DNA of 64,000 bases from Candidatus Omnitrophota bacterium (GCA_903856085.1 CAIOAT010000013.1:295430-359429); one strand, 5' to 3'; counted from the first letter of the stretch, positions 38,739 through 62,688 are shown. Translations and numbers: made by a program. Notes: a model not told the origin generated them from the sequence alone.

Positions 38739-41700
38739 TTACGCGCTCTTCGCGGTCGCGAAATACTCGGCCTGCATCTGCTCGACAAACTTGCTCACGC
38801 CGAGGCCGGCGAGATTGAGGAAATTCCGGAACATCTTCTGATCGATCGTCACGATGTTTTCTTTCAGCTCTTCTGCCAGAAGTGCCGTCTGGGGATTATG
38901 CGCTCCCGCGAAAACCATGGCCTTCAGATTCCAGGAATCACGGATAGGTGCGGCTTCACGATCGGTTGCCAGAAGTTCTCTCGCTTCATCCAGATTGGCG
39001 GCCGACAGAATGGTGGGCCGATTCGCTTGACGAAGTTGCTGATTGATCTTTTCAAGAAAAACGCGATCGGTGGAACCTTTTTCAGACAAGACAACGACAG
39101 GAATAGCTCCGAATACATTCCGGATCACATAAATAAGGCCTCGCTTGAAGGCTGTTTCGGGATCAAGAACAAGCGCATCGCTCGCCTGGATCGTCTTGAC
39201 GCCCAGCGCACGATAAAGCATCTTGATCTTAAGCTTACTGAAGAAATTCTTCGGCTCACGGGTCAACGTGACCGGTTCTCCAGCATAAGCAGCCGGGATC
39301 AAATTCGACAAGATAATATCTTTTGCCTTGTTCGTATAAGCCAAGAGCGAAACGATGCCATCCGCAAGTTTTTCTGTAACACCCCGGATACCTTGTTCGC
39401 GTCCGCCACCCCTCCGGAAGTTATCCTCAAAAAAATCACGAAGCCCGGCTACCGGCGACGAGGGTTTCGTCTCTTCAGCCGATCTCAATTCAGAGCGTTT
39501 GTTCAGTTCCATAATACCCGCTTGCGGCGCGTTCATGAAATGCAAGATCTCATCCCGGACTCCAGGACGGCTCTCCAGAAGGTCCTGCACGGGCCCATAG
39601 AACTGTTTAAATTCATGCCCGGCCATCCCCAAATGCCAAACGCTTGGCGACTGGACCGCAACGTGCGCATAGGGCAGCTTGACGTAAGCAATGGCGTGGA
39701 TCACCTCGGGATCGATCACGATCGTATCCCCCGCCTGGACCTTCATCACATATTCTTTCGAATGCTGTGTTTTGATATAAAAACCCATAGCTCCGTCGGC
39801 GACGTAATACAATTCGATGGCCTGCGCGCGTTTCCCTTCATGCTCCAGGGAAGAGCGGTGGGAGTGCACTCGCTCCCTGTCGCCATAGAGTTTCTCATCG
39901 TAGCGTGACAGATCCCTCCCGGGAAAAGATCTTTCCTGGGGTGCGTCTTCCCGGATGAGAGATGCCCCGTTCCAAAGAAACTGGTCTTTCCCGTCTGCTT
40001 TCCTGAAATGAGTATAGGCGGAATTGGCCCACTGGGTCGGCATACGGGAACTCGCGTACATAAAATTCTGTTTATCGGAAAGGGCGATAACAAGCACTCC
40101 CAGTTCCTGGAGCTTTTCGTTTGAAACTACCGCGGAGCGATCCGGCCCCGGGTGCGGCAAAGCCCTGAAATCCTCGCTTCCAAAATCCTTGAACCACGGC
40201 GGTGCCTTCCGCATATGGATCATGAACTCGGCCCCGCTCAAATCCAGAAGATCCAGAGTCACTCCCGGCGCTAGGTCTTTTATTACGATCACGCCCCGCT
40301 CGTTGAGCTCAATGACCTCCCGGTAGTTTCCGTGATTGACCTTGATCTTGACGGCTCCTCCCTGGACGTTATAAATCTGGATCTCGCCCGCAAAACCTCC
40401 GGCGACCTCTCCAGCCGCGAGGGCGCGTAGATATTTTTCTATCTGAGGGCCGACGTAAAAACTCAGATCCGAATCGCCTTCAACCTTCTGTCCCATCTGA
40501 CCCATATCGATCGGTTGAGTGAGTAGCTGTCCATTCTGGAAACGGTAAAAGTTCCCTGTCTGATGCGGCACCAGGGGCTGTAATGCACCCAACTTGGAAT
40601 ATTCAAAACCATCCGCCTTGACGAACCTCTTGATCCCCGCGATCTTGGCGTAGATCATTTCGTCCGAAGACGGCACCGGCAGGATCTCGAAGAAATGGAA
40701 CTGCCCCGGCCTCAGGATCACATTCAACGGCTTCATTTCGTCGGGCGTTCTTATGAAGGTAAGATCGTTTTCATGGGGCCATTCAAGCGCTCCCTTCCAA
40801 AAGCGGGTGCCCCGGTCACGAAGAATGTAGAAGTTGGAGGAAAAATCTGCACCAAAATATTTCTTGAGATCCAAGGAGATCGCGGCCACACCGTCTTCGG
40901 TCCGGCCTTCGTGGGTGATCCCCAAGAACCATTTGCCGTCGTAAGAAGTCATGGAGGCGGCCACCGTGGCATTTTTAGCATTCCAATTTCGCACCTGGAG
41001 CGGCGTCACGGTACCTTCAAAAAATGCGCGGTGCGAAACGAGCTGATTCCGGAATCCTTGAGCAGGATGCACATTGATCATCCCTTCGGGTCGCTCACCG
41101 CGAAGGAGCTCTTCGATGGAAACCCCACGCGCTTCGGACCGCTGGAGCGGAATAGTCGCTTTAGGGACCCTCCGGACAGCGGTGAATGCGATGTCCTGAT
41201 AGCTGTTGATCTCAAAACCAGAGATCGTAATGGGGATCTGCTGGACGGGAACTTTACCGACGGCTCTATAAAAATCCGCGAACTCCTCGGCCGTCATGCG
41301 TCCCTGAACGGGATAGACCAGCGTCACGTGAAAAGGCCGTGGCGGATTACCAAGACCAAGATGTTTTGCGATCGTCCCTTGGACTACGGCCAATGGATCT
41401 TCTTTCCCGTCAGCTTTCCAGATCATGACCACGCCAAGATCCCGGTGCCAGTAGGGCCCGATCAATTTTCCGTGAACTTCGGAAACGGAAGAACTTCGAA
41501 ACGCCTGCCGCAAAGCTTCGGTTGTCTTACGAAGAAAACCATTGTCGACTTCCGCCGCCGTCACCCCATGCTTCAAGCCCTGCAAAGTCAGGTGAAGCTC
41601 ATCCTGAGGAACCGTCAGAACACGAGGTCCGAGCGCGCCCTGGATCTCGGCTTGGATCTGCGTCATTTTTTGGACCGCTGCTTCCTGGTCCTTCCCAAAG

Positions 41701-44700
41701 AAAACACAAGCTGAGGCTCCGCGAGCGGTCACGATCTTGCCGCCCTTGAAGTTTTCCGCGATCCTCGGTAATTCCACCGCCGGCTGATCGCTTTGTAATA
41801 GCGAATCCATTTGCGCCTGAGCTTCAGTCCAAAACGCGTTCGAGGGACTTTCTTTCAATAAGCCAACAACCTTCTTGGCGTTAGCACTGATTTTCTTGGC
41901 CCCAAGGGTCGTTTGGATCTCTTGGGTGTCCCTCATCTCAGAACGCTGCTCAGAGACAGAAAACTCTCCATCCCTAACTCCGCCCGCTTGTTGCGCCCAT
42001 ATCCTCTCGGTGTGAAAAGCCGCATCCTGCAAAGTAACATCGGACGGCAATAAGAAGACAGTCGCTCCAAACGCTCCTGTGAATTGAGGGTATTTTTCGC
42101 GCGGATCGATTTCCGCAACAAGCTCATAGACGCCTTTCTCACCAGCCTGCTGTAAAGGCTTAATAATCCCTTCCCCCGGGATCTCCTGATCATGCCACGG
42201 CGGAACCGAGGTCCCTTTGCCTCTCGGTCCAAAGTGGACGAAGAAACGAGCCCTCTGAAGAGCTTCGTGCTTCATCCGAACCAACAACTTCAGCTGAAAA
42301 CGTCCGGACGCCTGCGGCTCGATCCTTACGCCTTTTTCAGGAAATTCAATGGCTCCTGCCAATTCCGCTTTCGCAGCCCCCGGAAGCACCACGGTTTTCT
42401 TTTCTTTTTGAGAAGGAATTCCGACCGCGAAATAATGAAAGCCGTTCGCTTCCAACTCATAAGGATCGTAGAAATGACGTCCGTCCACAACATTGAAATG
42501 CTCTGTAACGGATTTTCCAGAGGCCTCGGTCATCCCTCCCTCAAAAAACAGTGTTCGCCAATCCGCGTATTCGGGCCATTCGGTCACCAAAATTTGGGCG
42601 TCACTACCGCGAATCGCCTCACGCGCATTTTCAGCTGCATTTGTTTTATGATCGAAAAATTCGACCCCTTTAAGGTCCATCGCCCTTTTTGAAAAATGGT
42701 TTCGCACACTCGAAGCTGTGGCAGGATGCGCGTCCGTGACCCGCACCTTGGCGCCCTGTGCTAGCAACGCTTCTATTAATTTCAGGGAGGGCGCATTTTC
42801 AATGGAAGAATTCGGCCCGGGCTTATAAGCAAGGCCCAGAAGTGTGACCGTTTTCCCGCTCAAATTGCCTCCGACCGCTTCGCGCGTCTTATCGACATAG
42901 AGTTTAACCGCTCGCTCATTGCTCTCAGCGAACGCGGTAACAAAAGGCACTCTTGTGTCTGTCCCGTTACTCCCGCTAAACCCATAATGGCGCTTTAGGA
43001 TCTCGATCTGTTCTCGATATTCCCGGAGTTTGTCCATAAGACCTTCGCTGTGACTCTCTGCGAATTTAGTAAATTTTTCAAGAGCGGCAAAAAGATCGAA
43101 TCCACCAAACCCGATCCCGGGCTTCAGGTAGAGGTCTCCCACGACAGGATCCGCGCCAAGGCCTTTGAGGATGTCGCGAATATCGCCTCCCGACCTTTCG
43201 GCCAGCTCCGCGAGCGAGATCATAAAAGCGATCCTTCCGGCGAGAAAAAATTCGATCGCTTTTTTCACGAATTCGTCCATTCCACGGGTCAGAGAAGTAC
43301 CGGTTTCCCCGACGAAAGGACTCGGCAGCGTTTCATGGCTGATACCAAAATATTGAAAACCAAAACCCGCAACCTCCGCGGGATCCCAGGCGTTGCGCCC
43401 GTCAAAAACAAGCGGCCTCTTCTCCCTGTCGGGGAACATCGTTTGAACCTTTTTAAAATTGAGCTGTCTGAACGCATCCCATTCAGTGACAAGCACGATC
43501 GCACTGGCCCCTTCCATCATGCTGTAAAGATCTTCCGGATTTTGAAAATACTGCACGGGCGCCGCAGTGCCGGTGCCCGGGGCCGGATTCAGATCCGCAA
43601 GGGTTTTTTGTAAAGAGGGGATCGCCACAGGATCATAAACCCGCACCTGAGCGCCCCATTCCACCAATTGACGGATGATCAAGATAGAACGCGCTTCCCG
43701 GTCGTCGCTGGTATTGGGTTTAAAAGCCGCGCCCAGCACAACGACGGTTTTGTCTTTCACCCCGTCGAGCTTTTGCTTGATCCCGTTCGCGAACATTTGC
43801 CACTGTGCTTCATTGACCGCAAAGGTATCCATCATGAGCCCGAAAGGCATACCGGCTTTCGCCAGCTGTCTCATGAAAGAAAGGGAATCTTTCGGAAAAC
43901 ACGACCCGCCCCATCCGATCCCGGCTGAGAGAAACATCGGTCGGATCCTGGGGTCCGCTCCGAGTTTTTCAGCGACCTTTTTGACATTGAATCCGAAAAG
44001 CGCAGCATACCAGCTCAGGTGATTGATGAATGAGATCTTCCAGGCCCGGTAACCATTGGCCGCATATTTGACGAGCATGGCGCTTTTGATCCCCATCTTG
44101 AAGATCGGGATGGGTTTCCCCGGGTATTGAGGATTGATATTTTTCGGATCGTAAAGCGCTGCCACCCGGTCGGCAATCGCCGGCTTCTCAGCGCCAACAG
44201 CCATGCGCCCGGAACCTCCGAGGGCATCCTCCACCTCCAACCCCTCGCGCAGGAATTCCGGGATCCAGGCAAATTCGATCTCGGCGCCTTGCGGAAGACC
44301 GACCTGGTGTATCCTGGCTTTCAGCCTGTCAATGGTCTCTGGCGGAGCCGTGCTCTTTCCGATAATGATCTTCTTCTCGCCGGGTTTCATCAGTCGGGCG
44401 ATATCAGCAACCGCATCTTCGAGGAAATGGGTGTCACTTTCCCCATTGGAAAGATAGGGCGTCGGCAGGGCCAGGTAGATGATCTCGCGGCCCTCGATCG
44501 CTCCAGCAAGATTCGTCGTGAATCGGAGACGTTTCGCCGCCAAGCCTGCTTGGAGGAATTCCTCAAGACCCGGCGCGTAATTGACCAGCTTTCCACCATT
44601 TAAGGATGCCACGCTCGCGGGCTTAATATCCACAGCGGTCACATCATGACCGAATCGGGCAGAAAGCATAGAAGCTTCCGTCGCACCCACAAACCCTGCG

Positions 44701-47700
44701 CCACCGATCACCGCGATCTTCTGAGCCTCGTGCTGTGGCCACGCCGCATTTAATGTTCCGGCGTCTGAGGTTCCTGTCCTCGCTTCAGATCGCATCCCCT
44801 GCGTCGCCCCCTCAGAAGAATTGACGCCCACCGGGACCATTTGAAGGACCTGAAAACGCCACCCCAGCTGAGCGATCCCCGCGGGATCTTTCCTCTTCAC
44901 CACTGAAATGCCGACTCTCCATCCTTCTTTTTGAATAGAAGATAATGTGTGTTTCTTTTCGTAATCGATTTGGAGCATATGATCCCGGGTCTGATACACC
45001 AGGCTGGACTCCAACCCGAGCAACGAAATGCTCCCGACCCCGAACCACACTTTTCCTTCCTCTTTATTATAAGGAACCTTCGAGAAATGGATGGGAACCA
45101 CAACATGACGCTTGTGCTCGAATCCGTCCTTTTCTTCCTTCAATACTCGCGCAAGAACCACGGCCGTATCCCGGCTCGAATCGAGAAAAAAGACCTCTCC
45201 TCTTTCGAAAAGATCTTTCGTCTCAGGACTCTGCATCATGTTTTTTAATGCCCCGTAAACTTCCGCATCCCACTCTTTCATGTCCTCAAGAAGTTCGGGC
45301 ACAAGCGTCGCGATAAAGGCCATCACGGGACGAACGCCCTCCACCCCGAAAATAGCGTGGGCTTTGTCCCTGCCGATACCGGAAACCGTCTGAAGAAGCA
45401 TTTTCAGGTCTTCGGGCTTAGTCCCCTGGATCATTCGCTTTAGCCAATAAGTCCTAGGCTTTTGCTGCCGCAACTGCTCTCCAGAATTTCCGGAAACAAG
45501 AGAGCGCAGATCGTCCAGGATCAGAGATCCTCGCTGTTCTCTTTTCTTTTCCGGCTTCATGACCCCCGCGGCCTGCAATTCAAGGATTTGAAAATCGGGA
45601 ACTCCGATCGGTAAAGCCCCCTCCATTAACACCGAAAGAGGATAAGGCTTCCTCTCCTCGCCCGCCCCGTAAACTTCCCCCGTGATCGTATTTACAATGT
45701 GATAAGTCATGGCAGCTTCTGGATCGAGCATGTCCGTGAGCCATTGAAACGCTTTGTTTCCGTAAAACTGTCCCCAGGCCTTCGATTCTCCTCCGTCGAT
45801 GGCAGGATATTTTTGCTCTCCCAGATTAAGTCCTATGATGTATTTCTTATCGCCGACCTGAACGCCAAACCCTACAAGCTTTTTGTTCAAGGAACCGAAC
45901 CTCTTTCCCTTGGATTCCAGCAGGAAATAGAGGTTCTGCCGGAAAAGCTCATCCCTAAAAAGCCTTTCGTATTCTTTGCTGCGCGACTGAATGTAACCCT
46001 GCAAGACGGTCTCGGAGAGTTGGACCACAAAACGATCAAAAAGCCGGAGCGCCGCCAGATGAATCCGGACTTTTTCTAAAAGATCGTTCGTTTTGTCAGC
46101 CTCCGCCTTGAGCCGCATCATTTCCTGATAAAAATCGGGAGCTTCCTTTTCGAATCCTTCGAAATAATAAAGGATCTTTGCGAAGATCTCGCCCCTCGCC
46201 GCGTGATACGCGATCGACTTGTAGCTCTCGACGCCATGCGTCCGTACTTGCCGGGCGCTTTCAACAAACGTCAGGACTCCGGGAGGAGCGATCTCCAGAG
46301 CATTCGAAGGCTCACTCCTCCAGACAAATCCTCCGTCATTCCCGGATTTTTTTGAAAGAAATCTCAAAGCGCTTTCGGCAGAAAGTCCCGGCTTTGCCAA
46401 CAGAGCTTTTTGTTTCTCGGATTTCTGAACGACCCTCTGCCAAAGCTTGATATGCGCCCTTGCCTGACTTTTTTCCATATCGACCAGAGGCGAGGACCGG
46501 AGCGCTTCCCACTGAAGATTCATTCTGTCGCCAGAGACCGCGTATGCCTTTTGAAGGGCGATAAGGTCCTCGATCATGGATTCCGCGAGTGGATAAGGGG
46601 CGTTGACGACCTTGATATTCCCGTTGTCGTCGAGAGTGCTTAAGATGAACTTGCCGTCGCCATCCTTGCTGTAAAACACCAGAAAACCATTCGTGATCTT
46701 CCACTTTTTTGATTTGAGATTCTCAACCACCTGTTCGTAAGTGATCTTATCTCTAAAAATATCCTTTTCGAGCCCAGTCTCATTATCCACGATGGTGAAA
46801 AGTTCCGGCTGCGCGCCTCCCCAGGCCCCCATCAAAATGGCCCCGTTCGGCAGACCTTTCATCATACTGGTCGCGGAAGCCTCAAGGATCATGTAGGTGA
46901 TCATGACGGTTCCGGAAACGCCCTGGAAAATAATGGGCGCGTCTTTAATATTGTAGTTCTCGATGGTCGCGAATTTATCTTCGAGTTTAAGTTCCCGGAT
47001 AAGACGCTGGATCTCCAAGAAGAGCCCGTGCGCCTCATCATCGAATTCCCGGCCGCCGATTATGGCGCGCGCCGCCGTCTTTTTATACTGTTCGAGTTTG
47101 GCAGGATCTGCCGCTAGCGACCGGAGAATCTCAAGCCATTTGTCCGGCCCCTTGTAAGAAACCTGTCTGCGCACATTCGAAACGATTGCTGTTAAAAGGA
47201 ATTGCTTCCTGAGCGCCTGGGCCTTGGGATCCTTAAAGATCTGTTGCCATTCACTCTCATCTTCCAACGCCTTTTGGATCCGGGCTTGAAGATCTGCCAC
47301 AACCTGAGGCCCATCCACTTCCGTGATACCGAATTCTTCCTGATACGACTTCATCGCCTGATCGAACCATTCGGGTTTGTTCTGGCTTGCCTTGAGCCAT
47401 AGCATCAGCCGCCCCGCAAGGTAGGACTTGATCATGTCCGTTCTTTCCTTGAATTCCCCCAGGAAAGCCTCATTCCCCGGATGGCCAATCTTGATGAAGA
47501 AATCCCGGTCATCCGATTCAGAAGACATCCCGAGTTTCGCTTTGTAAGTATTGATCAATTGACGCAAAAACGGCGCCTGCCATTGTTCGAGCAGTACCCC
47601 GTTGGTGCTCCGCAGCCCACCCTGGTTGAAGCTATCGATCACATCGACATACCCCGGCATCACGCCTCCGGACACCGCGGGCGTATGCTCGTACAACGCA

Positions 47701-50700
47701 ACACCGGTCACGAGATCGTAAGAAATTCCCACCGCATCCACGATGCTGATCGTTCCATTCCTGATAATGCGCGACCGCATCGCCTGGGGATACCCCAAGA
47801 GTTGAAATGAGGCTTCAGCCGGCCGGTAGATGGTCGGCGAATACACAGAATGATTCATGTGGTGATGAGGCGCATCCGGAAAAAGAGGCGTCGGGATACT
47901 GGCGAAGACCTCGTTATCCACAAAGAGAATTTTCTTTTTAGCGATGCCCTTTTCCTGGAGTTTTAGCGTAAGGAGTTCTTTGGTTTTCCCATAAACTGCC
48001 AGATGCAGATCACGCCAAAGATTGGGACCGCCATCACGAGTATCCGGATAAACTTCATCAAAGATTTGGACCTTTGTCCCATCATCGGCAATATAAAAAG
48101 CCTCGATATAAAAATTCGGCATCCCGCCGGAAAATGTGTTTGTCGGATAAACCTTAACTTTGATCTCGCGATCCACCGCTTCTCGGGCTTGCTGGAGCCG
48201 TTTCTTATACAGCGGGTCCCCTGCGCGTCCGATCCATTCCTCAGCTTTGGCGCGGTATTCATTGCCAGCATCGAGAAAAATACTAAAACTCAATCCAGGA
48301 TCTTCGGTCAAAACCTCGCGAAGATAATCCCCCAGCGTCTTCTTACCGCTCGTCACTTCCTCCGGAAGATCTTTGGCGAATTCCTGTCCCTTGATCCGGT
48401 CATAGATCACATTCACGGCAAAAGCGTCGATGTTCGCTTTCTTGGGCTGGCCAAAATTCTTTTGCCACGAAGGAAAAAGATCATGCATCAGAGCTCCTAA
48501 TCCCCCCGTCACGGTTGTTGCTGCGACCAAGCCCGCAATCGTTTTGCCATATTTTTCTTCAAGCTTCTTTAGGATTTCACGATCCAACCCCGCCTCGAGT
48601 TGCCCAGTAACAACGGTATAATCCTCTAGCTCGGGAGCATTTTTCTCGGCCCAGGAACGCAATTCGGCGCGCTTGGAATTTGCTTTTTGAGCCACGCGAA
48701 CCATGGCTTGCGCGATTTCAAGACCATTTCCCACAGCCCCGCCTTCGATCACAGGCAAAACATTCTCGGACACATATCCGGCAGATCCGAGAGCATAAAG
48801 AAGCAATTGACCGCTCTCCTCCGCAGCCTGAACTCCCCTCGAGATACTGCGCGGCATGTTGCTTATAAATGCCGCAAGTTCTGAAATCGTCGGAAGATAA
48901 TGAGGCATGAAAACCGCTGCGATCGCAGCAGGATCCGCCGCCCGAGCTTCGGAACGAAGGGCAGCAAGAGGAATGCCATTTAAATGGAACGCGTTAAAGC
49001 GGGCTGTTTCATATAATTTTTTAAACTCCGGAACCAACTCGTCCCAGTCGCGGACAGAATTCATCCCGCGTGCTCGCATATCATAAAAGGCTTGGGGATC
49101 GTTCATGTAGACCGCAACAGCTCGCTCAGTAGCCTCATCAAAAAGCTTCATGACTGCTTCAAAGGACGGGGTTTTCTCAAGATCTTTGATCTTGTTCAAT
49201 CCTGGAAAATAGAACTTGAAGCCTGTGGCCATCGCCGCGTCTTCCTTGGGGTCCAGGACCGTATTATCAAGCCCGCCCACCGCATGCACGATCGGGATTC
49301 CGCCATACCGGAGGGCCTGCATTTGGCCAAGTCCGCAGGGTTCAAATTTTGAGGGCATAAGAAAAAAATCTTCCGCGGCATGTGCCTTCCGAACGAGCGT
49401 TTCACTGAAGGCGGGCGTGAAATAGGCGCGCCCCGGGAATTGCGCCATTAAGGCCCTGAAACCCTCCGCGTAGTGATTTTCCTCCCCGATCACGGCGATT
49501 TGAGCATTCGGATGCCGATTCAAGAGCCGGCGTGCTTCTTCAAGGATCAGCTCCGGACCCTTTTGATCCGCAAGTCGCGTAGCCGCCACAAAAAGCATGG
49601 CGTTCGGGTTTTGCTGGAGGCCGACTTCTTTTTGAAACTCTAATTTATTCGCACGCTTGCCTTCGGCTACGTTTTCAGACGTGTATTTTTGATAGATTTT
49701 GTTATCCTTCGATGGATTCCAAACACCGCTATCCACTCCGTTCAAGATCCCCGTGAAATCATCTTTCCGTTCGAGAAAAACGCCTTGCAGACCCGTGTCG
49801 GGATCCGCAAGAAGTTCTTCGCGATATTTCGGGCTCACCGTCATGAATTTTTCCGAAAAAACAAGCCCGGCCTTCATCAGATTGAGCCCGCCATGGAATT
49901 CGAGATACTTCCACCCAAACGCCCATTCGGGCATCCCCATGGACATAAGAAGCTGTTTGCCGTAATTAAAAAGATCCGGACCATAACGCTGTTGATACGC
50001 CGCATCAGCATTATGGATCGTCATCGTGATCCCGGAGGTCTGGAATTCACTGGGGAAAGCGGCTCGGATAAAAGCCGCGACAAGTCCCGGATGCGCGTCG
50101 TGTAGATGAATGATGTCGGGTTTCTTGACAGCGAATTTTTTACGAAGGATCTCCACGGCGGCACGAGAAAAAACCGCGTATTCCCGGAGCCCGTCGAGAC
50201 TTCCGGAACTCCAGTAGCCTTTTTGAAAATAACCGTCTTTCTTGATGAAATAATACCGGACACTGTGCGCAACTGCGGTATAAACCTCAAAAGTTTCCTC
50301 GCGCCCTTCGATGGGGATCTTCACAGTAAACCCAGCATTTTCAACTTTGAAAGTTTTCTGGGTAAAAACCGAGGGGTGGCCCGGCATGATCACAAATTGA
50401 TGAGCCCCTAAATGTTTTAAAAGCGCCGGCGGTTTTTCCCGAACGACATCTTTCACTCCCCCTTTGCCAAAAAAATCCGCCGATTCCATCGCGATATGAA
50501 CCACATCGTGGACCGGCATAGTCATGGCTTCATCGTTTCGCACCTCACTCCGGACTTTTCGGCTCGTAGGGGGCGCAGAACGAAACGCCGCAGGCAATAT
50601 GTTTATATGAAGCTGCTGCCCTAAAAATAACGGGTTAAAGTTTCCGGCAAGTTCCGCCGCCACACTCAGCGCAGCCTTTTGAAAACTTTGGGGAGACACA

Positions 50701-53700
50701 GCCATAAGGGTAAATGAAGGTCCCGTAGCATTCCAAACAGGCAACCCCAAGACCGCAAACCCTGCTCCGCTGAAAGCAAGGATCGCTTCCTTTTCGAACT
50801 GAAGGTGGGAATATGAGCGATTAGCCCTCTTCTCGGAGCGAAATCCCCCGGAAAATGCGGGCTTTCTCACGCGAGAAGAAGTGAAGTGGGCCTGACCGAG
50901 AGAGTCCACGCCGGTGAGCCGGAGGGTGAACTCTAAATCTTCGCCTGTTGTCCCGCTCGGAATTTTCGATTTGAATTCAAAACCGACATCGCGCCACTTC
51001 AAATCAACAGAGGGCATAGAAGCGCCCCGGGAGGGGTCATAAAGGGTCGAGGAAACCTCAAATTGGGCCTGACTTCCTTGGCTTTCACTCTGACGCAGTT
51101 TTGTTTCGGCTAAACGGATCGTGATGCCCGGAAAAATTTCCGCCGTTTTCCCGGAGCTCAGCGTAACCAGATGTTCAATTTTGCTGAAATCGAATGGATC
51201 TTTGATTGACTCAACAAGCGTTCTGTTTTCAGCTGTCGGCTGACCTTCATCCCGTATTTCGGAACGAATAAATTTTGCGGTCGAACCCTGCGGCAATGTC
51301 ACAGTGGGAATTTCATCCAGCGGACGCGGTTGAATGCTGAGAGGAACCTGGATGTTTTCCTTAAACTCTGTTTGCAAGATCCTTTCCACCACCGGGATTG
51401 CGCGAAGGATTCCGTCCTGAATTTTGTCACGCCCAAGGCCATCATAAAACCAATCCAAAATGGGAGCCGGCGCTCTTTTTTGACCTTCCTTATAATGAGG
51501 GTCTGTTTCGTTTAAAATAGCAACAATCACTGCGTCTGATATCTGACCTGTGGTGTTTAATTTTGACTGGATAAGCGCCACGGCTTTGGCTTTATCAATC
51601 TTCAACCGGTCTCTCATATTCATAGCAGAGTAAAAAACATCCCCGGCAAACTCTCTTCCGAGGAGCTTCCAAAGAACCACTCGCTCAAAACCTGTCGCGT
51701 TGCTTAGAAGATACCGTTTGGGACTTTGCGGATCTCCCCATCTTCCGTTGTAATCACCCCAAAAAGCATTCACGAGCGCCTGCAGGGACTGTCCATACTT
51801 GAGCTCCTTGGGCGGCTGAGGAAGGCTTCCCATTTTTATATTTTGCATCCACTGAGGAGCGACATACATCTTATCGGGTGTCTGTTTCAACAAGCCTTCA
51901 GCCCGGATTTTCTCAATGGCCTGCACCGCCAACTTCCGCGTATCCGGCCAGGTCCTATTCAATTCGGCCAAAGCAACGGCCACTGCTTGGGCGGCTTTTG
52001 CCCTTATTTCTTCCATCCTTTTTATAGAAGCGGCATCCTCCGCCGCGCCGGCGAAACGGATCGGCTTCCCAACCATCCGGCTCGCATTCATATAAAATCT
52101 TTCGGCCGACAAGGCTCCGTCAAAACGAATTTCGACATAAGGCTCGCTGCCACCCCCATAGGACTCCACAGTCCCGATTCTTCCGGCCCGCTCCACGCGC
52201 ACTCCTGCCATTCCTTTAACGCCTTTGAGATTCAGGGGCACCTCTTCCCCTCCCCGCATCTCGGCACGGATTTCGCCAACAGCGCTTGGCTCCGACGTTG
52301 CAAAAGAAACCATCAAAATATCGCCACGCGTCAATTGAGTCCCGCTCTCGCCGAGCACTTGAATTTTCCTGATTTTAGAAGAATTAAATTTCCCAATCTC
52401 CCTGATGGCTTGCGGCATTGAAATATCTTCCTTGATAAGAAATTCGCCCGGAGCCAGCTCCTTGATCAAAGAACTTAGACCCGCGTTTCCTCCTTCTAAC
52501 TCACTGGCTATTGCATCCAACCGCCGCATTAGCCCCAATGTCAAAGCGCGATAGGGAGCCAGTATCTCAATGACCGAATTGACGGTTCCGATCACTTGCA
52601 ACAGATCCGCCGGGAAATAGGTCAAGGCTTGGGTTAACACACCCAGAACTTCGTGCTTGTCGTTGGGATTGAGCGAATAATTTGAATCAATTTCTGTGCG
52701 GATAGCCTTAAGCTCCGCAATCATTTCTCCCATGCGAGCTTCGGTGATTTGAGGAGCCTGCTTGCCCGCCCGCACCTCGGAGCGGACTGCTTTACCCGGG
52801 GATTTCTGTGACAGTGCCACCGATGGGATCTCGTCCATCGGGCGGGGTTTGAGCGTGATCCCGATCTCAAGCCCCTTTTGGACTTCCGCCTGGAGGATTC
52901 TTTCCACCACGGGGATGGCGCGAAGAACCGCTGATTGGACATCGAACCCGCCCTCATTCCATCTTGCAACGGCCACCGGAGCTTTGGAATTTCCGGGCCT
53001 TGCTTCTCCCCATATTTCCTCAATGGTTTTATCGGAGATACGCCCGTATTTCAATTTAGACCTTATCTGCCAAGCTGTTTTCCCTTTTTCATCCTTAAGC
53101 CTTTCCCGAAGATTGAACGCGGAAAAGAAAACATCTCCGGCCAGCTCATGCCCCAAGATCTTCCAAAGCACGAAACGCTCCACGCCTGTCGCATTGCTAA
53201 AAAGATACCGCTCTTTCGCCCTTCCGTTATAAGCTCCCCAAAAAGCCTCCACCAAGCCTTGCAGGTCTTGGGCATACTCGGCGTCCGTCATTTTACGATC
53301 TTCTTCCTCTTCGCCGAGATTCTTGGGAGGCATTGCCGAACTGCTTGCAATGGCGATTTTTTTCATCCAACGGGAATGAACATACATCCGGTCGGCGGAT
53401 TGGTTCACAAGACTTTCTTTTTTAATGAGCGCGATGGCTCCTTTTGCCAGACCCGTTGTTTTAGTCCAGGTCTTCGCCAATTCACTGGCAGCTTTTTGCG
53501 CTTCAGCTTCCGCAGCCTTTCGCGATCCCAGCTCTTCCACCTCCGAGGCAAAAAGAAGGGGTTTTCCCACCGAGGCGCTGCCTCGTAAATAAAACGGTTG
53601 GATATCACTCTCTCCGTCGAAAAGGATCTCCAAAAACGGTTCTTTTCCACCGCCATAACCCTTTACGGTTCCAACCTTTCCGCCCCGTGTCACGCGGACA

Positions 53701-56700
53701 TTCATCTTCCCTTTGATTCCCTCTAAGTTCAGTGGTACCTCGCCCATGTTTCTCACCTCCGAGCGCGGGAAGAAGAGGATCGTCACCACGGAGCCAAGGA
53801 TTTGGTCCCGGCTCCAGGATTCCATGGAAAAAGATTGGCTCCTTTTCAAACCCGCAGGATCTATATGAAGGGCTTGGTCGCCGCGCTGTGCGTCCATATC
53901 CATCAGGCCCTCATGAGCTCTAAATTGACGGATCAGCGTATCAATGAAGAGCTGCCAGGCCACCTTCGGATCCCCCGGCAGGCTCCCGTCCCCCGCAGGG
54001 ATCTCCACGGCCAGGGCATCGGCTCCCTGAAATTCCGCGGCCCGTTCGGATAAATGAACCACGGCTTTGTGATTGCGCAGAAAGTCCGGAAGCACTGATT
54101 TTCCGACCCCTTCAAGACCTTTTAAAAAATCCGCTTCGTTAAAATTGGATGCAAGCATGATTTCATCGGGAAGCTCTCCCGGGCCAACCGGGCCAACCCC
54201 CGCAACAAACGCGGCAACGCCAATGCGGTGGGTTAGGGTGTGTACCATGGGACCGATGTCTTCATCTTCAGCCTTAGAAAAAAAGTTTTGAAGAAGCTTA
54301 TCCAGCGCTCCCTGGAACAGAAGGGTCTGAGGTTCTTTTGTTTTTTGAAAGGTCTCTAAAGCCTGGGTGATAGGAGCGGCTACGGCGCCAACCGCGGATA
54401 AAACGAGGTCATTCCGACCGCCCTTGTACACGTCTTCGAGGATCTTGTTAAGCATTTTGCGGACCATTCGGAAATTTTCCGCATTAATCTGGCTCTGCTG
54501 TCCCCGGATCGCTTCGATCACTTCCCTTATCTGCCCGACAGCCTTATCCCGCGCTTCAGCGCGGGGCGCCAAAAACAGATTGGTTTGGATGTTGGGGCCA
54601 AGCCAGCGATAAACGCCCTCCGGCAACCGGTCCTTTGATTCCATAAGAGCACGCGAAGGATCATCCGTGGCAGCCGGAACCAAGAGAAATATTCCTTCGT
54701 AGTCTTTCCAGTTGTAATAAGGCGTCGTAAAAGCGGAGCCTAGAAGTTTCACCTGGTTGGCCGGAAGGCCGTAGCTCTGCATAGAGGCTTCTGAAAAGGT
54801 CCAAGATTCTTTTTGTTTCGAATTCCCCCAGCGCAGATAAACTCTGAAATTCCCGGCGTTAAGGAATGCGTCGCGTGCTGCCGAATCCGGGAATTCCAAG
54901 GTCGAAGAAAAATCAGCCCGGTCCCCGTGGATCTCCACCTTGCCATCCTTCGAGCTCATGACCGGCAGAATTGGATTTGAACGCACTTCGGCGCGGGGCG
55001 AACCGGCCGCGGGAGCTGCGTGTCCTACTGGCCGCATAGCCAACGAGGGACTTTCGGGTGTCATTCTTGCCAACACCCGATAGGCTTGCTCGGTCTCATT
55101 ACTTTTCTGATCTTGAAGAAAGGGCGTTAACCGGATAAATTTACCGAGCCCCAATTCATCAAAACTCCCGGTCGCAAACCTGACGCTTTTTTCTACGATC
55201 CGGATCGAGTTATCTTCACGCTTGCGAAGAATCGCAACGATCGGGAATTCGCCCTGATACGCTTGCAAAACCTTTGGTGTTGCATCCTGCGCGCCTTGAA
55301 CGGAGAGTTCGGTTTTTTCAAGCCCTGCTCGGAAAGAAACCCGCCCCTCGGATCCCACCACGCGATATTCCAGCGAATGGTCAGGATGTAGGACAAATCC
55401 CCAAAAGTTTGGATCTGCAGGCAAGGTTCCATCAAAACTGATAACGCCCAAGTATTGATCATCCGCCGGCAGGATCTTCACGCCGCCATAGGTCGCATCA
55501 ATCTCTTCGCCCAATGTTTTAAAAAATACGTCGACTCTTGCCGCGCGCAGTTCGGGGCGAAACAAACCCGAGGGTTGAGGCTGAGATTGCCGCGGGGAAA
55601 CGCCAACGGCAGAAGCAATGATTTTTTTGAAGCCCGCATCAAACTCCGCCCTATTCTCCGCGCTGCGATCGTGGTAAGAAGCAACGGTCTCGCGCACAAT
55701 ATCGCGAATCCTGGCAAAACGGACCGCAAGTTCGCGACGCCAAAAACGCGGCGACACGGCGCTAAAAAAAGAGACCTGCTGGGTGACTTTTTCAGGAGCG
55801 ATATGAGAACGCGTAATCGCGTTGGAGCCAAGAAGCGCTGTCAGATAATTTTTGTTGGAATCGGCTGTGATCTCGCCGATGGAAGGCATGATGCCGATAT
55901 AAGAACTGCCGGAGGCTGTGATCGCCTGTTTAAAACCCTCGGTGTGAAAACCACCGGTGATGATGACCGCTTTCGTCTGCTTGCGCTCCTTCATCACTTC
56001 GCGCGCCCTCTTCATCATAAAATCTTCACGCTCGATGGCGCCGGAGTAAAAATTCAAAGCTTGCTCGTTAAGTTGCTGTAAGGCGGGCAGCGTGTCGCGT
56101 ACGGCGCTCTCTTTGCCCCGCACCCGATCAAGCGCTTGCATTAACTCGGAAGGAGAAATTTGACGTGACAGAACTTGCTGATATTCTCCGCGAGAAAGCT
56201 CCAAATGAAACAGCTTTTTAAGGAGTTGGTATTCGCGAAGCGAGCGCACAAGCGTTTTTTCCTCATCAGTTTTTACAAGGACTTCGACCAAGGACGCAGT
56301 AAGCTTTTTAATCTCGGACTGAAGCACCTCGCTCTGGAGTTCGCTTATAAGGATCATTTGCTGGATGCGAAGGCGGAGGTTCGGGTAAGCATTAAAAGAA
56401 AAGTCGGCTGGTAACGCATCCATCAGACGCTCGAAAACGAAGCGGGTCTTGTAGAGCGGCAAACCGCCTTTTTTCGCCATTTCGAACATCGCATTCATTT
56501 CATCTCCAAGCTTCTTTTCACCGTACTCCGTACTCTGTACTCCGTACTTAGCGATATCGCGTAGAAACGTTGCTTTCTCCGCTTCAACTTTTGAGAGATC
56601 AATCTTCCCATCCAACGATCTCAGCCGGAAATAGCGGACCAGGGTCGGCCACGCAAGCTGCGCCTTAACATCTGTAAGATCATTTCGTAGGATCGTATTC

Positions 56701-57425
56701 GAAGATTTCTTGAGTGTTTCCAGCCAGCTTTCAAGCGGGACGGTCCCCTCATCGAATGCAGCGTAACGGGTTATGAGTTCGCGAAGCTCAGGGTTCAGCC
56801 GAAGGCTTGCCTCTTTTTGCCACTCAAGATAAACACCTTTCAAAAACAGATCGGAGGCTCCTCGCCCTTCATAAACTTTCCTATAGGATTCACGATCCTT
56901 GGCGTATGCCGCAGCGTTTTCAATACCGTACGCCTCTGCTTGTACAGCGTCTTTCGTACCCCGTACTCCGTACGGCAACTGATCGATCATGAACACTTCT
57001 GCGCCGGTAAGTTCCCCGGCCTGCATGAGTTTTTCGTTCACTGAATGCTGAAGTTGGGCGTTCTTAGGAAAGAATCTGAAAGGTTCGGGCGTAAGTTTAT
57101 TGCCGGCGCCTTCTAAAAGGACAAGCTGGATGCCGTAATTTTTGGATAAATACTGAAGGATATTCTGGATATTCTTCTGGGCATCGTAGTTCGCATGAGC
57201 TTCCTGGATATGAATAAGGAGAGATCCTCCTTCAGAGCTCTTGATGCTGTCCGTGATCTTGCCGAACTCCGCTGGAATTTTAAATGAGTTTTCGGAAAAA
57301 AACTTCGGGAAGTTTTCGACGGTTTGGCCATAGGCGACAGGAGCAGGCGTAAGCGTGTTGGTCACGAAGAAAGTGACAACAATAACGCCCGCAAATAATC
57401 TCTGTAACCGCTTGAGACAGTTCAT
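38739..57425 (-). CDS. Giant 6228-aa multi-enzyme protein: signal peptide + TraB/GumN-like domain + duplicated unknown modules + glycogen synthase + alpha-glucan phosphorylase + UDP-glucose dehydrogenase + degenerate UGDH-like domain + 2H phosphoesterase + cupin, joined by recurrent RSE[VA]R linkers
   Basis: Uninterrupted 18,687-nt ORF with an ATG at 57423-57425. Domain calls rest on motifs read directly in the translation (see sub-features). Antisense ORFs across it are short and carry no motifs. Confidence 0.85.
   Translation of the reverse strand: [6228 protein letters not shown]
39621..39908 (-). other. Cupin domain with a His/Glu metal site (sugar-phosphate isomerase-like), aa ~5840-5935
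   Basis: [25 protein letters not shown] (HxH…E motif 1) and [18 protein letters not shown] (P…H motif 2). Confidence 0.45.
41226..41723 (-). other. 2H phosphoesterase (LigT/ThpR-like) domain, aa ~5235-5400
   Basis: Two H-x-T-x motifs in hydrophobic context ~88 aa apart ([10 protein letters not shown] and [10 protein letters not shown]), the hallmark of the 2H superfamily. Confidence 0.55.
42546..43328 (-). other. Second, degenerate UGDH-like domain lacking the catalytic cysteine, aa ~4700-4960
   Basis: [14 protein letters not shown] aligns to the [13 protein letters not shown] block but with Cys-to-Phe/Asp substitutions, followed by a UGDH C-terminal-like [20 protein letters not shown]. Confidence 0.5.
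43626..44720 (-). other. UDP-glucose/GDP-mannose 6-dehydrogenase domain, aa ~4236-4600
   Basis: [16 protein letters not shown] NAD-binding motif, catalytic [13 protein letters not shown] (Cys present), and C-terminal UDP-binding [18 protein letters not shown]. Confidence 0.75.
46746..48623 (-). other. Alpha-glucan (glycogen/maltodextrin) phosphorylase GT35-like domain, aa ~2935-3560 (may extend further C-terminal)
   Basis: [29 protein letters not shown] resembles the PLP-lysine block EASGTSxMKxxxNG of GT35 phosphorylases. An upstream Gly-rich [10 protein letters not shown] fits the N-terminal glucan phosphorylase region. Confidence 0.5.
48966..50522 (-). other. glgA: Glycogen/starch synthase (GT5, GlgA-like) domain, aa ~2302-2820
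   Basis: N-terminal [24 protein letters not shown] (compare GlgA …E.APF.KTGGL.DVV) and C-terminal [28 protein letters not shown] (GlgA EPCGL motif). Confidence 0.7.
51267..52253 (-). repeat. Internal protein module copy 2 (aa 1725-2053), paralogous to copy 1
   Basis: [45 protein letters not shown]…MYVAPQWM…[38 protein letters not shown]…[12 protein letters not shown]…[11 protein letters not shown]. Collinear with copy 1 at roughly 45-50% identity by eye. Confidence 0.7.
52785..53750 (-). repeat. Internal protein module copy 1 (aa 1226-1547, unknown function)
   Basis: [44 protein letters not shown]…MYVHSRWM…[38 protein letters not shown]…[12 protein letters not shown]…[11 protein letters not shown]. 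Confidence 0.7.
55566..57248 (-). other. N-terminal TraB/GumN/Tiki-superfamily-like domain (paralogous to the 733-aa neighbour)
   Basis: Shared blocks with the 57696..59897 protein: [16 protein letters not shown] / IQIQDVHAHATAQQNI, LLEGAG / [17 protein letters not shown] / VTGGFHTDGL. These resemble the GxxH…E…GxGH pattern of the TraB/GumN family (assignment inferred). Confidence 0.4.
57327..57425 (-). other. Predicted Sec signal peptide / N-terminal membrane anchor of the giant protein
   Basis: [34 protein letters not shown]: basic n-region, hydrophobic core, AxG-type cleavage context. Confidence 0.55.
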
Positions 57426-57625
57426 GAAATGGTCTTTCCCCTTTCAGAATTTGTATGGAGGATTTATAGAAATGTAACACGATTTTCTAAAATTTCAAGG
57501 GGTTGGAAAAGTATTTATCAGACTATGTTTAATGCCTTTTAAAGAAGGACTCCTTCCGAGGCTATTGCTAGTTTATGCTACAACTTGGTCTTGGCAGCAA
57601 TACCGATCTTTAACATCGCAAGGCA

Positions 57626-57654
57626 TTGATTTTACACGGGTTCTGGGCTATATA
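57626..57654 (+). promoter_or_regulatory. Candidate sigma70-like promoter for the 733-aa secreted paralog gene
   Basis: TTGATT (57626-57631), 17-nt spacer, TATATA (57649-57654), ~40 nt upstream of the ATG at 57696, in the divergent intergenic region shared with the giant gene. Confidence 0.3.
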
Positions 57655-57695
57655 TATGGGGTGCGCTCCCAACAGCTATTCAAGCGGAATCCATA

Positions 57696-59897: not shown

Positions 59898-59902
59898 TAC
59901 TT

Positions 59903-59925
59903 CGGGGAACGGTTAACGGGGAACG
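59903..59925 (+). repeat. Two direct copies of CGGGGAACG downstream of the 733-aa gene
   Basis: cGGGGAACGgttaaCGGGGAACGcgg, immediately after the stop at 59895-59897. The same 9-mer is at 36629-36637 and inverted at 37111-37119. Confidence 0.6.
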
Positions 59926-59989
59926 CGGATTCAAGAGATTTTCCATCGCCTGTTTCGTATTTCCCGTTTTCAGGGGAAAAAGCAGTGGC

Positions 59990-60430
59990 CTATTTTTTTT
60001 CCGCGAGATCTTTCCAATTCGCGAGCGTATTCTCAAAACTCTGGTCGAGAATAGCCCGCACTTTCTGTTCTCCGAGGATCATCCCCGCGATCCCAAGATC
60101 CCAGCGAAATTCTGCGGCAATTTCAACTCCGGCAGGTTTTGTTTCAAAAACAAGTGCTCGCGTCATAGAGCCGTTCATGGGAAGCGTGCTTTGAATAACC
60201 GCTTTCCTCATAGGCTCCCAAACGGTCATTGTGTGCTCTACCTCAATATGCTGGCGGTCCAAGACACAACTTTCACGCCAGCGCATTCCACCCCCTTCGC
60301 GCACTGCTCCTGTTCGCTCACTTTCTTTGACGCCATCCACCCATTCAGGCGTACGCGTCACATCAGCGAGCAGATTCCAAATCCGCTCGAGTGGGGCCTT
60401 TATTAAAATATTTTTTGTGAGTAGATTCAT
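59990..60430 (-). CDS. SRPBCC (Bet v1-like/polyketide cyclase) family protein
   Basis: 146 aa. N-terminal IKAPLERIWNLLADVTRTPEW pattern typical of SRPBCC ligand-binding proteins. Confidence 0.55.
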   Translation of the reverse strand: MNLLTKNILIKAPLERIWNLLADVTRTPEWVDGVKESERTGAVREGGGMRWRESCVLDRQHIEVEHTMTVWEPMRKAVIQSTLPMNGSMTRALVFETKPAGVEIAAEFRWDLGIAGMILGEQKVRAILDQSFENTLANWKDLAEKK

Positions 60431-60440
60431 TAAAATTGAT

Positions 60441-61750: not shown

Positions 61751-61761
61751 GTGCTGGCAAT

Positions 61762-62669: not shown

Positions 62670-62688
62670 GACTGACTCCTTTGCTGGG

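Follow-up and report, generated by a model that had tools for sequence, protein, structure and literature searches.

The stretch of DNA analyzed here (64,000 nucleotides [nt]; referred to below as the window) comes from a Candidatus Omnitrophota bacterium (GCA_903856085.1, CAIOAT010000013.1:295430-359429) and contains a giant minus-strand open reading frame (ORF) at 38739..57425, stop codon included, that starts with ATG and encodes a protein of 6228 amino acids (aa) and 692 kDa. We found that a pentapeptide, R-[SAP]-E-x-R (RSExR for short), stands at all 15 inter-module junctions of this protein, and that in related giant proteins whole cassettes are gained, lost, and reordered at the same delimiter. 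On the strength of these sequence comparisons we postulate that the delimiters are probably processing sites and, a shade less surely, that the precursor is probably exported. The combined reading, in which a modular polyprotein is exported and cut at RSExR in a manner reminiscent of the MARTX toxins, is the one we favor, although in our judgment it falls just short of probable.

Translation of 38739..57425(-) gives 0 internal stops, and a stop-to-stop extension adds only 6 more codons upstream. The initial annotation of this DNA, made from the sequence alone, had described one uninterrupted 6228-aa ORF, and independent assemblies bear this out. ENA ERZ18624489 and JGI 3300022555 have 0 mismatches to window positions 47696-64000 (16,305 nt), reveal no frameshift, stop, or chimera, and each call a 6228-aa product. 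The exact 6228-aa protein occurs on 15 contigs (NCBI, JGI, ENA, and GEM), the longest of which is 382 kb, and the exact sequence of a neighboring 733-aa protein occurs on at least 18. Because independent assemblies are base identical and the same protein recurs on 15 contigs, the giant ORF is no assembly artifact; the 18.7-kb gene is a genuine, conserved Omnitrophota gene.

Cutting the protein at its delimiters defines 16 segments (S1 to S16) of 90 to 1288 aa, laid out as a head, 14 cassettes, and a C-terminal domain, with linkers of ~10-20 residues. From the N terminus, and all on the minus strand, the delimiters are RPELR at aa 623 (55545..55559), RAEVR at aa 811 (54981..54995), RAEAR at aa 955 (54549..54563), RSEVR at aa 1221 (53751..53765), RSEVR at aa 1548 (52770..52784), RAEMR at aa 1720 (52254..52268), RSEIR at aa 2054 (51252..51266), RSEKR at aa 2196 (50826..50840), RSEVR at aa 2292 (50538..50552), RSEAR at aa 2824 (48942..48956), RAELR at aa 2919 (48657..48671), RSEAR at aa 4212 (44778..44792), RSEMR at aa 5161 (41931..41945), RSEAR at aa 5429 (41127..41141), and RSELR at aa 5977 (39483..39497), the last directly ahead of the C-terminal domain. 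Against these 15 occurrences, shuffled versions of the protein have a mean of 0.30 and, in 2000 trials, never more than 4; R[SAP]ExR is absent from all other real genes of the window. The initial annotation had overlooked this motif, which tells more about the protein than any other feature. The recognized domain envelopes contain 0 delimiters. The hidden Markov model (HMM) envelope of the glycogen synthase-like (GlgA) cassette, for example, covers aa 2307-2810 between the delimiters at 2292 and 2824, which lie 10 aa ahead of the start of the fold and 14 aa past its end, and a dehydrogenase tandem is bracketed by the motifs at 4212 and 5161.

The delimiters are written with six different Arg codons and four Ser codons, and this variation implies selection on the peptide rather than on the DNA. 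Two other origins of the motif were considered and ruled out: a DNA-level origin (repeat, binding site, or recombination signal), since synonymous codons vary freely, and chance, by the shuffles and by replication in independent sequences.

That replication comes from a locus scan with one genome per species, which yielded 27 related loci, all in Omnitrophota metagenome-assembled genomes (MAGs). The giants of these loci and the window's giant together hold 221 candidate sites. In the logo of 220 sites, R1, E3, and R5 are present in 100%, position 2 is S (79%), A (14%), or P (7%), and position 4 is aliphatic or small; K hardly ever takes the place of R, or D that of E, and the sequence on either side shows no conservation. 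The family giants have 2.33 motifs per 1000 aa and neighboring ORFs have 0.12, and several of these "background" matches fall in further giant ORFs. Among 139 new representatives of the family, members of >1,200 aa have 2 to 3.5 motifs per 1000 aa. Lengths from motif to motif have a median of 188 aa (10th to 90th percentile, 52-948 aa), and bulky-hydrophobic content drops only within ~10 residues of the motif, so the linkers are short.

The family is large. Its N-terminal domain (N-domain, described below) opens a giant ORF in 22/27 loci, most of them >3,900 aa, a lower bound because these ORFs are open at the end of the compared DNA; the complete giants measure 3750, 3436, 3218, and 2369 aa. 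Homologs of the N-terminal 620 aa are Candidatus Omnitrophica proteins, many with the motif just after the common domain. An exhaustive HMMER search with an N-domain profile returned 10,146 cluster representatives, 7,282 of them at E<=1e-30, and in the best 150 representatives the N-domain is N-terminal in essentially all and lengths reach 7,498 aa. One named match belongs to Candidatus Auribacterota, from which it follows that the N-domain, but not the motif, reaches slightly beyond Omnitrophota within the Planctomycetes-Verrucomicrobia-Chlamydiae (PVC) group. The expectation in the initial annotation that such a gene has a lineage-specific architecture therefore fails: the giant is one of >10,000 cluster representatives and sits at a conserved syntenic locus, the same architecture and synteny being found in >20 independent MAGs.

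Cassette content differs between loci, whereas an Exo_endo_phos gene upstream and an mqnA-like gene downstream of the giant are syntenic across them; the locus thus keeps its ends and neighbors while its cassettes turn over. Cassettes are shared across species in different positions and combinations. The GlgA cassette (S10) also occurs, bounded by motifs, in three other loci (L004, L014, and L020), full-length and motif-bounded orthologs of S12 occur in L008, L009, L010, and L021, the S13 tandem recurs in L008 and L010, and the module common to S5 and S7 is found in L011 with the motif on both flanks. For 14 full-length cassette matches, the projected ends fall <=9 aa from a motif on the left in 14/14 cases and on the right in 10/10 evaluable cases. 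Relatives carry other cargo, including SDR epimerase, histidine phosphatase, amidohydrolase, radical SAM/SPASM, HAD, PPDK-like, Maf, methyltransferase, aldose epimerase, and receiver domains.

A single cassette difference can be followed between close strains. The variants P0028 and P0030 (6,494 aa, same 90% cluster, >90% identical) have an additional 266 aa exactly inside motif 5, where KAV-RSEVR-AGKQ in the window corresponds to KAV-RSEGR-GGMIPKLAMAGVFALGF...NPTT-RYEVR-AGKQ in the variant. The position of the insert implies that a whole cassette was acquired or deleted and that both breakpoints kept the register of the delimiter. In P0028 the insert is beta rich and starts MIPKLAMAGVFALGF..., with its own Met and a signal-peptide-like start. 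Across the family, 13/38 internal hydrophobic segments begin <=25 aa after a motif versus 6% expected (p 2e-7), and some of them are textbook signal peptides (e.g., L024, RSEIR-KG-MKPFIFSVVLASILGLATSLNA followed by QS). To judge from these starts, the cassettes look like whole pre-proteins.

The far end of the protein is conserved as well. The C-terminal domain (S16, aa 5982-6228, 38742..39482(-)), recognized through its homologs and ending ...AEYFATAKSA-stop, is terminal in L007, L012, and L021 (E 1e-35 to 1e-39) and occurs in 13/162 representatives (1,164-6,292 aa), always at the extreme C terminus and nearly always with the motif directly before it. A database search with S16 returned 3 fragments only, and its AlphaFold2 (AF2) model has a predicted local distance difference test score of 45, too low to be usable. 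Homology of S16 to the C-terminal region of the 733-aa protein or of the short family members P0007-9 was considered and rejected (HHalign probabilities of 4% and 0.5%). The last residues of the S16 subfamily follow the pattern ...AEY[LF]A[TL]A[KR]SA-stop (window 38742-38771(-)), and SA, AA, or RA are the last residues in 94/139 family representatives, including the short P0007 (...ARSA); this conserved end may be a C-terminal recognition signal. In comparison, then, the proteins show a fixed grammar: a predicted signal peptide, a TIKI-fold N-domain, variable gene-sized cassettes, and, in the window's subfamily, a conserved C-terminal domain.

Two related loci depart from this pattern in their own ways. 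In L012 (C-domain 19538-20299), a 9-residue insertion, GRSEVRSGA, places a delimiter in a loop inside the C-terminal domain; directly upstream, at L012:2-9661, another giant ORF (at least 3220 aa) ends in ...ASSA, so members of the family can occur in tandem. In L025:4752-16795 (UBA1443), only 45 aa remain of the interrupted N-domain ORF, which is followed in another frame by an ORF of 2127 aa with RSExR and an S16-like end; this copy is probably frameshifted, pseudogenized, or affected by sequencing error.

The family also appears to have dialects of the delimiter. P0269 (7,376 aa), P0271, P0277, P0282, and L026 are without RSExR and have instead an overrepresented [AG]-x-S-L-G (e.g., GASLGT), the first copy of which, at aa ~575-625, stands just past the N-domain, in the position of the first RSExR elsewhere. 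P0165 uses RAExR. Delimiter type showed no association with residue 75 of the N-domain.

The head of the giant consists of a targeting signal and the N-domain. The first 34 residues (MNCLKRLQRLFAGVIVVTFFVTNTLTPAPVAYG, followed by Q; 57324..57425(-)) are predicted from charge, hydrophobicity, and the AF2 model to be a Sec-type signal peptide or signal anchor, as the initial annotation had proposed: a net charge of +3 precedes a hydrophobic (h-) region that begins at residue 10, and the model has a helix at residues 2-24 followed by a disordered stretch. In 158 family members with a Met start, the h-region begins at a median of residue 10 and is flanked by net charges of +3 on its N-terminal and -1 on its C-terminal side; by the positive-inside rule, 94% agree with an N-in/C-out orientation. 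Close homologs conserve this region to an odd degree (V17, F19, F20, T22, N23, T24, L25, and P27 are invariant; FF.TNTL.PAP), which hints at a specific recognition step beyond generic Sec targeting.

The N-domain (aa ~47-540, 55806..57287(-)) has, by its fold, the alpha/beta architecture of the TIKI/TraB/ChaN/erythromycin-esterase superfamily of hydrolases, with a helical insertion of ~300 residues between the two halves of the fold in the AF2 model. Its motifs are HIQEAH (aa 72-77), LLEGAG (103-108), and GGFHT (491-495). The superfamily's catalytic His-Glu pair and second His are present, and H77, E105, R466, and H494 are invariant in 186-187/188 sequences. The H-to-E spacing of 28 equals that of Bcr135 (H85/E113) and RRSP (H3902/E3930), whereas E75, the first Glu and the equivalent of RRSP Glu3900, varies in the family (N/D/E). 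The TraB/GumN-like domain named in the initial annotation thus holds at the level of fold and not of family, Pfam giving no curated TraB/ChaN match for the N-domain (only PF04187, E 0.078, 13.4 bits against a cutoff of 27.7). Sequence-specific endopeptidase activity is known for RRSP (PMC6254334).

Next to the giant, on the opposite strand, lies a short paralog of the N-domain (57696..59897(+)), the 733-aa protein mentioned above. It is transcribed divergently from the giant and has no Pfam match; phmmer aligns it with the giant's N-domain at E 4e-22. It has its own signal peptide, the catalytic motifs of the N-domain (as QIQDVHAH, ALEGAW, and GGFHT), 0 RSExR, and 0 Cys, and by tblastn it stands upstream of the giant in ~19/27 loci at 41-69% identity.

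Between the ends, the segments range from confidently assigned enzymes to sequences with no recognized relatives. S2, S3, and S4 (aa 628-810, 816-954, and 960-1220; 53766..55544(-)) are without a recognizable family: Pfam found nothing significant in them, and they have no counterpart in the 27 related loci at E<1e-5. They bring the unassigned sequence after the N-domain to ~590 aa, not the ~400 first estimated. S5 (aa 1226-1547, 322 aa, 52785..53750(-)) and S7 (aa 1725-2053, 329 aa, 51267..52253(-)) are the two copies of an unassigned ~325-aa module that had already been noticed, and they match each other at E 1e-83 and 46% identity; a single-sequence search with S5 gave no PDB match. S6 (aa 1553-1719, 52269..52769(-)), S8 and S9 (aa 2059-2195 and 2201-2291, 50553..51251(-)), and the 90-aa S11 (aa 2829-2918, 48672..48941(-)) are likewise unassigned after Pfam searches. 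The 266-aa cassette of the close variants is inserted at the motif upstream of S6, and aa 2214-2232 in S9 is the sole internal hydrophobic segment of the giant.

S10 (aa 2297-2823, 48957..50537(-)) is the glycosyltransferase family 5 (GT5) glycogen/starch synthase of the initial annotation, and the assignment stands: TIGR02095 scores 341.9 bits (cutoff, 328.45) and aligns aa 2307-2807 with model positions 2-476 of 477, and Pfam identifies Glyco_transf_5 (E 3e-39) and Glycos_transf_1 (E 6e-12). It contains EPCGLGQ (aa 2695-2701) and GKGGVKDV (aa 2320-2327), which we take to be the GT5 motif E-P-C-G-L-x-Q and a variant of KTGGL (K-x-G-G), respectively. The NCBIfam GlgA equivalog models all score far below cutoff (e.g., NF001903, 294 versus 616), and S10 is <=38% identical to stand-alone GlgAs. 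By these measures it is a divergent GT5 subfamily with no donor sugar assigned. A database search with this cassette returned ordinary stand-alone GlgAs only and no other giants.

S12 (aa 2924-4211, 145 kDa, 44793..48656(-)) appears to combine a very divergent GT35-like core with a ~650-aa extension. The phosphorylase assignment was based on EASATSMMKG, a block of the pyridoxal phosphate-Lys type at aa 3515-3524, and it survives in part. Curated models stay below threshold (PF00343, 19 bits versus 27, over model positions 526-591 only; TIGR02094, 21.9 versus 191.7). However, a profile of nine orthologous S12 cassettes (A4) matched only GT35 enzymes, that is, glucan phosphorylases, in the PDB (26 sequences, best E 9.7e-7), with its invariant E-A-s-A-T-s-M-M-K aligned to EASGTSNMK; only ~110 of ~800 residues align.

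S13 (aa 4217-5160, 41946..44777(-)) contains a complete nucleotide-sugar 6-dehydrogenase, a degenerate second copy, and a ~150-aa tail. TIGR03026 scores 392 against 190, and Pfam finds the N-terminal, central, and C-terminal dehydrogenase domains, the central and C-terminal ones twice (PF03721, 120-122 bits; PF00984, 125-129 bits; PF03720, 128-133 bits). The catalytic-Cys motif GGSCFPKD lies at aa 4506-4513 (Cys4509). The second copy, already noted as a Cys-less domain resembling UDP-glucose 6-dehydrogenase (UGDH), has GIGFGGFD in place of the Cys motif and no NAD-binding domain, and is probably noncatalytic. Substrate-level equivalog models stay below cutoff (TuaD, 369 versus 700; AglM, 309 versus 670), so of the former UGDH call the enzyme class is retained and UDP-glucose is not; judged by its profile matches, S13 is a nucleotide-sugar dehydrogenase with no substrate assigned. 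Of the three enzymes for which HMM support had been sought, GlgA and the dehydrogenase are upheld, and the GT35 assignment is weak.

The last two cassettes are less certain. S14 (aa 5166-5428, 41142..41930(-)) is a possible 2H phosphoesterase, having both HxTx motifs (HLTL at aa 5278 and HVTL at aa 5366) and a LigT_PEase match (PF02834, E 3.6e-4, 21.1 bits) that falls under the cutoff of 23.3; a single-sequence search gave no PDB match. S15 (aa 5434-5976, 39498..41126(-)) is mostly unassigned. The cupin reported there earlier is reduced to a weak call of a possible cupin/jelly-roll at ~aa 5868-5912, with Cupin_2 at 15.2 bits against 27.2 (E 0.018); a single-sequence PDB search with S15 gave only insignificant CRP beta-roll matches, at E ~0.4.

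The giant is strikingly poor in cysteine. It has 4 Cys in 6,228 aa (0.064%) versus 1.02% in the window's other 32 genes, a 16-fold difference (p 1e-22), and the family giants have 0.14-0.15%. The four residues lie in the signal peptide, in EPCGLGQ of GlgA, in GGSCFPKD of the dehydrogenase, and in S14. The GlgA cassette has 1 Cys (0.19%) versus 1.0% in stand-alone GlgAs, and in L018, 8/10 Cys are ligands of the radical-SAM CxxxCxxC and SPASM clusters. As far as composition tells, nonessential cysteine is removed from all cassettes, cytoplasm-type enzymes included. Such loss is typical of proteins that are translocated unfolded or live in an oxidizing milieu. The retention of catalytic and Fe-S ligand Cys implies that the enzymes are functional and need a cytoplasm-like environment. 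Elsewhere in the window, the GGT, DUF4340, and ABC auxiliary proteins, which are probably exported, are also Cys poor (0.3-0.5%), although far less so than the giant.

We propose that a site-specific endopeptidase recognizes the delimiters and that the 692-kDa product is a polyprotein. This is the most economical explanation because every linker has a strict site, the cassettes are gene sized, the sites occur in dialects, and a protease-type fold is found both at the head of the protein and next door. Cutting at every delimiter would release fragments of ~9 to 145 kDa, among them S1 (70 kDa), GlgA (59 kDa), S12 (145 kDa), and the dehydrogenase tandem (103 kDa). The precursor would be exported N terminus first and unfolded, which would explain why the whole family has a signal peptide and why Cys other than those in motifs or acting as ligands have been purged. 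The candidate protease would be the TIKI-fold N-domain or the adjacent 733-aa paralog, both predicted to be extracytoplasmic; the endopeptidases Tiki and RRSP have the same fold and the same catalytic His/Glu set. A protease role for the N-domain is a guess by analogy.

Several observations weigh against this explanation. Segments inside the chain that resemble signal peptides are easier to understand if the cassettes are cut apart in the cytoplasm and then targeted one by one, the TIKI fold is also that of esterases and of a heme binder, and stand-alone N-domain proteins without cargo exist. About 20/107 long family members have neither motif, and no third motif emerged among them. The motif was first defined after inspection of the giant's own sequence, yet it replicates in independent sequences. 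Outside the giant, the window contains no mobile element and no secretion or injection system. Finally, the cargo needs ADP- or UDP-glucose, NAD+, S-adenosylmethionine (SAM), ATP, or Fe-S clusters, which are absent from the periplasm, and export is therefore sensible only if the enzymes are delivered to another cell. We speculate that they act in the cytoplasm-like compartment of a host or prey cell and not in the periplasm, since such delivery would reconcile export with cofactor dependence. In its fullest form, RSExR (xSLG in a sister clade) would be the cleavage code of a polyprotein system spanning >10,000 clusters, in which a TIKI-fold endopeptidase of the membrane or periplasm, the N-domain or the neighboring paralog, would cut an exported, Cys-free precursor into dozens of independent enzymes that act inside a host or prey cell; we consider this extended version improbable. 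The processed polyprotein, the membrane-tethered metabolon, and the exported effector named in the initial annotation are still the three live readings.

The rival that survives best follows the current literature. The protein would be an unprocessed mega-enzyme or scaffold, anchored by its N-terminal and internal hydrophobic segments, and RSExR would be a nonproteolytic linker motif (a partner-docking site, hinge, or folding or pausing signal). In the window's giant, the N-terminal third would face outward and the enzymes past aa 2232 would form a membrane-tethered alpha-glucan metabolon in the cytoplasm. We regard this as possible but rather doubtful. The hydrophobic segment at aa 2214-2232 does separate the dark N-terminal third from GlgA, so that with two transmembrane (TM) segments all recognizable enzymes would be cytoplasmic, and GlgA and the GT35-like module in one chain could channel glucan turnover. 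A preprint of 2026 reads such proteins as membrane anchored (bioRxiv 10.64898/2026.06.07.730766), and a single long mRNA and expression have been reported for other Omnitrophota giants (bioRxiv 10.1101/2023.11.21.568195). However, L018, L022, and L023 encode cytoplasmic-type enzymes with 0 internal hydrophobic segments, and the two-TM solution is therefore not general. Across species, the cassettes (radical SAM, Maf, methyltransferase, PPDK, and receiver) form no coherent functional set, and the Cys purge would be left unexplained in the supposedly cytoplasmic part. To our knowledge, no uncleaved multidomain protein has an invariant pentapeptide in every linker, and this too counts against an unprocessed scaffold.

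An alternative hypothesis, which we think unlikely, retains cleavage but moves it into the producer's cytoplasm. The gene would act as a "translational operon" whose chain is cut at RSExR, co- or posttranslationally, by a cytoplasmic protease. Each cassette would then act as a protein in its own right: those with their own signal peptide, the N-domain among them, would be exported, while GlgA, the GT35-like enzyme, the dehydrogenase, and radical SAM enzymes would stay. Such a gene would account for the clustering of signal-peptide-like segments right after delimiters, for the mixture of cytoplasmic-type and secreted-type cassettes within one ORF, and for cargo whose cofactor needs are met only in a cytoplasm and whose Fe-S ligand Cys are conserved, and it would resolve the topology paradox of the 2026 preprint. 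Internal signal peptides and cofactor requirements are explained best by this hypothesis, but the 7- to 16-fold Cys purge, which extends to the cytoplasmic-type cassettes, GlgA among them, is not. Moreover, the motifs are not followed by an excess of start Met, the window yielded no candidate for a cytoplasmic protease, and the signal peptide at the N terminus would be apt to enter the Sec pathway ahead of any cleavage farther down the chain. As for an artifact, in which an assembly chimera or missed frameshifts would have joined several adjacent genes, we regard it as practically impossible: metagenome origin is the sole general reason for caution, and against it stand the recurrence of the product on contigs from four sources, the base identity of two assemblies over 16.3 kb, the architecture and synteny repeated across independent MAGs, and thousands of family members.

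The other genes of the window are chromosomal housekeeping genes, among them those for a lipid A acyltransferase, SOD, AhpC, DHFR, transketolase, ABC transporters, a GGDEF protein, an mqnA-like protein, GGT, and an M24 peptidase; scans for tRNAs and Rfam families gave 0 matches in it. Two further multidomain glycosyltransferases are encoded without delimiters, a 1078-aa fusion of Glyco_trans_1_2, GT4, and GT1 at 2521-5757(-) and a 683-aa protein with two GT2 domains at 6020-8071(-). The ORFs of an HI0933-like flavoprotein (16326-17612(-)) and a Radical_SAM_N protein (17524-19401(-)) overlap by 89 nt, and the GTG start of one of them is probably called too far upstream. Just past the window's right end, at 16123-22077 of L028/L029, a gene for a 1984-aa CHASE/PAS multi-sensor protein is followed by an Hpt gene and two receiver genes; the multi-sensor gene lies a few kb upstream of the giant's locus.

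The giants of Omnitrophota are puzzling because they are transcribed and expressed and yet combine cytoplasm-type enzymes with export signals, and both cataloguing papers left open whether each remains one chain or is cut. The delimiter offers a concrete prediction: 15 exact sites, the precise mass of each fragment, and a candidate protease encoded both within the gene and beside it. If cleavage were confirmed, this would be a rare case of polyprotein-style gene expression in bacteria, giant proteins could be split by rule for structure prediction and annotation, and the evolution of giant genes would be explained by cassette gain and loss at the delimiter. Many predicted TM helices of giants would be reinterpreted as signal peptides of single cassettes. 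Combined with the Cys purge, a confirmed cleavage would point to metabolic-enzyme export by ultrasmall, host-dependent bacteria, and if delivery to host or prey cells were true, these proteins would represent a MARTX-like platform for metabolic, not toxic, cargo, with RSExR supplying the missing cleavage map of the Omnitrophota giants. Should cleavage be refuted, one would still have to explain why thousands of proteins have an invariant pentapeptide in their linkers.

Known polyproteins follow a comparable principle. In viral polyproteins (the picornavirus and potyvirus 3C/NIa type) and in the gingipains RgpA and Kgp, one ORF yields several mature proteins through short conserved sites in flexible linkers, and the protease is part of the same chain or encoded nearby. 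We recognize no homology between these and the giant. Its candidate protease has a TIKI fold and is not a chymotrypsin-like or caspase-like cysteine protease, and its cassette repertoire, unlike theirs, is highly variable between species.

The MARTX toxins of Vibrio are similar in design, though not by homology, in that conserved ends enclose a variable array of enzyme cassettes joined by short linkers. MARTX proteins are processed between modules, as we infer for the giant. They are exported through a C-terminal type 1 secretion signal and carry toxins, whereas the giant has an N-terminal signal of Sec type and metabolic enzymes as cargo. Pfam searches of the whole protein and of every segment detected neither the RTX-type, glycine-rich repeats (A/B/C, at both ends) nor the internal Peptidase_C80 domain that, with type 1 export, define MARTX toxins, and the giant is thus not a MARTX toxin.

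A precedent for exported alpha-glucan enzymes exists within the PVC group: Chlamydia trachomatis exports housekeeping-type GlgA, GlgP, and phosphoglucomutase, which act outside the bacterium's cytoplasm on host-derived sugar nucleotides (PMC4829429, Gehre et al. 2016; PMC9251005). The chlamydial enzymes are not fused; they are separate proteins that lack a Sec signal peptide and leave by type 3 secretion, and host delivery of the giant is speculative.

The nearest relatives are the catalogued giants of the same phylum, in which, as here, many unrelated enzyme Pfams tile one ORF. The initial annotation knew of no such fusion, but preprints of 2023 and 2026 report multi-enzyme giants from Omnitrophota in which starch-synthase domains abound. 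West-Roberts et al. 2023 (bioRxiv 10.1101/2023.11.21.568195), reporting on Archaeovorins and genes of >90 kb, found GT5 to be the second most common domain in giant Omnitrophota proteins, discussed cleavage as a possibility that they left open, and noted that missing cleavage points prevented them from subdividing the proteins. The 2026 preprint (bioRxiv 10.64898/2026.06.07.730766) defines a "multi-enzyme metabolic cluster" class, finds PF08323 in 153 long proteins, and notes the paradox that arises because 94% of the proteins catalogued have a signal peptide, TM segments, or both. Inter-module motifs, linkers, polyproteins, a TIKI-like N-domain, and a fixed C-terminal domain go unmentioned in both preprints, and in the searchable literature we found no paper with the motif strings in this context and none linking Omnitrophota with polyproteins. 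The fusion as such is already known; the delimiter and cassette grammar is undescribed as far as the searchable literature shows. At 6.2 thousand aa (kaa), the giant is shorter than the proteins on which the catalogues center (the 2026 preprint mentions a corpus of proteins of at least 10 kaa), and by Pfam, over the whole protein and its segments, it has no SecA/DEAD, dockerin, C39, or S8 domains. It has these class 1 features of the 2026 preprint: Omnitrophota origin, many enzyme Pfams with none dominating, and a signal peptide. The catalogued giants and the family described here share PF08323 together with GT1, radical SAM, HAD, methyltransferase, and receiver cargo, and the catalogued giants likewise display an N-terminal signal peptide, scattered hydrophobic segments, and the conflict between cytoplasm-type enzymes and an exported topology.

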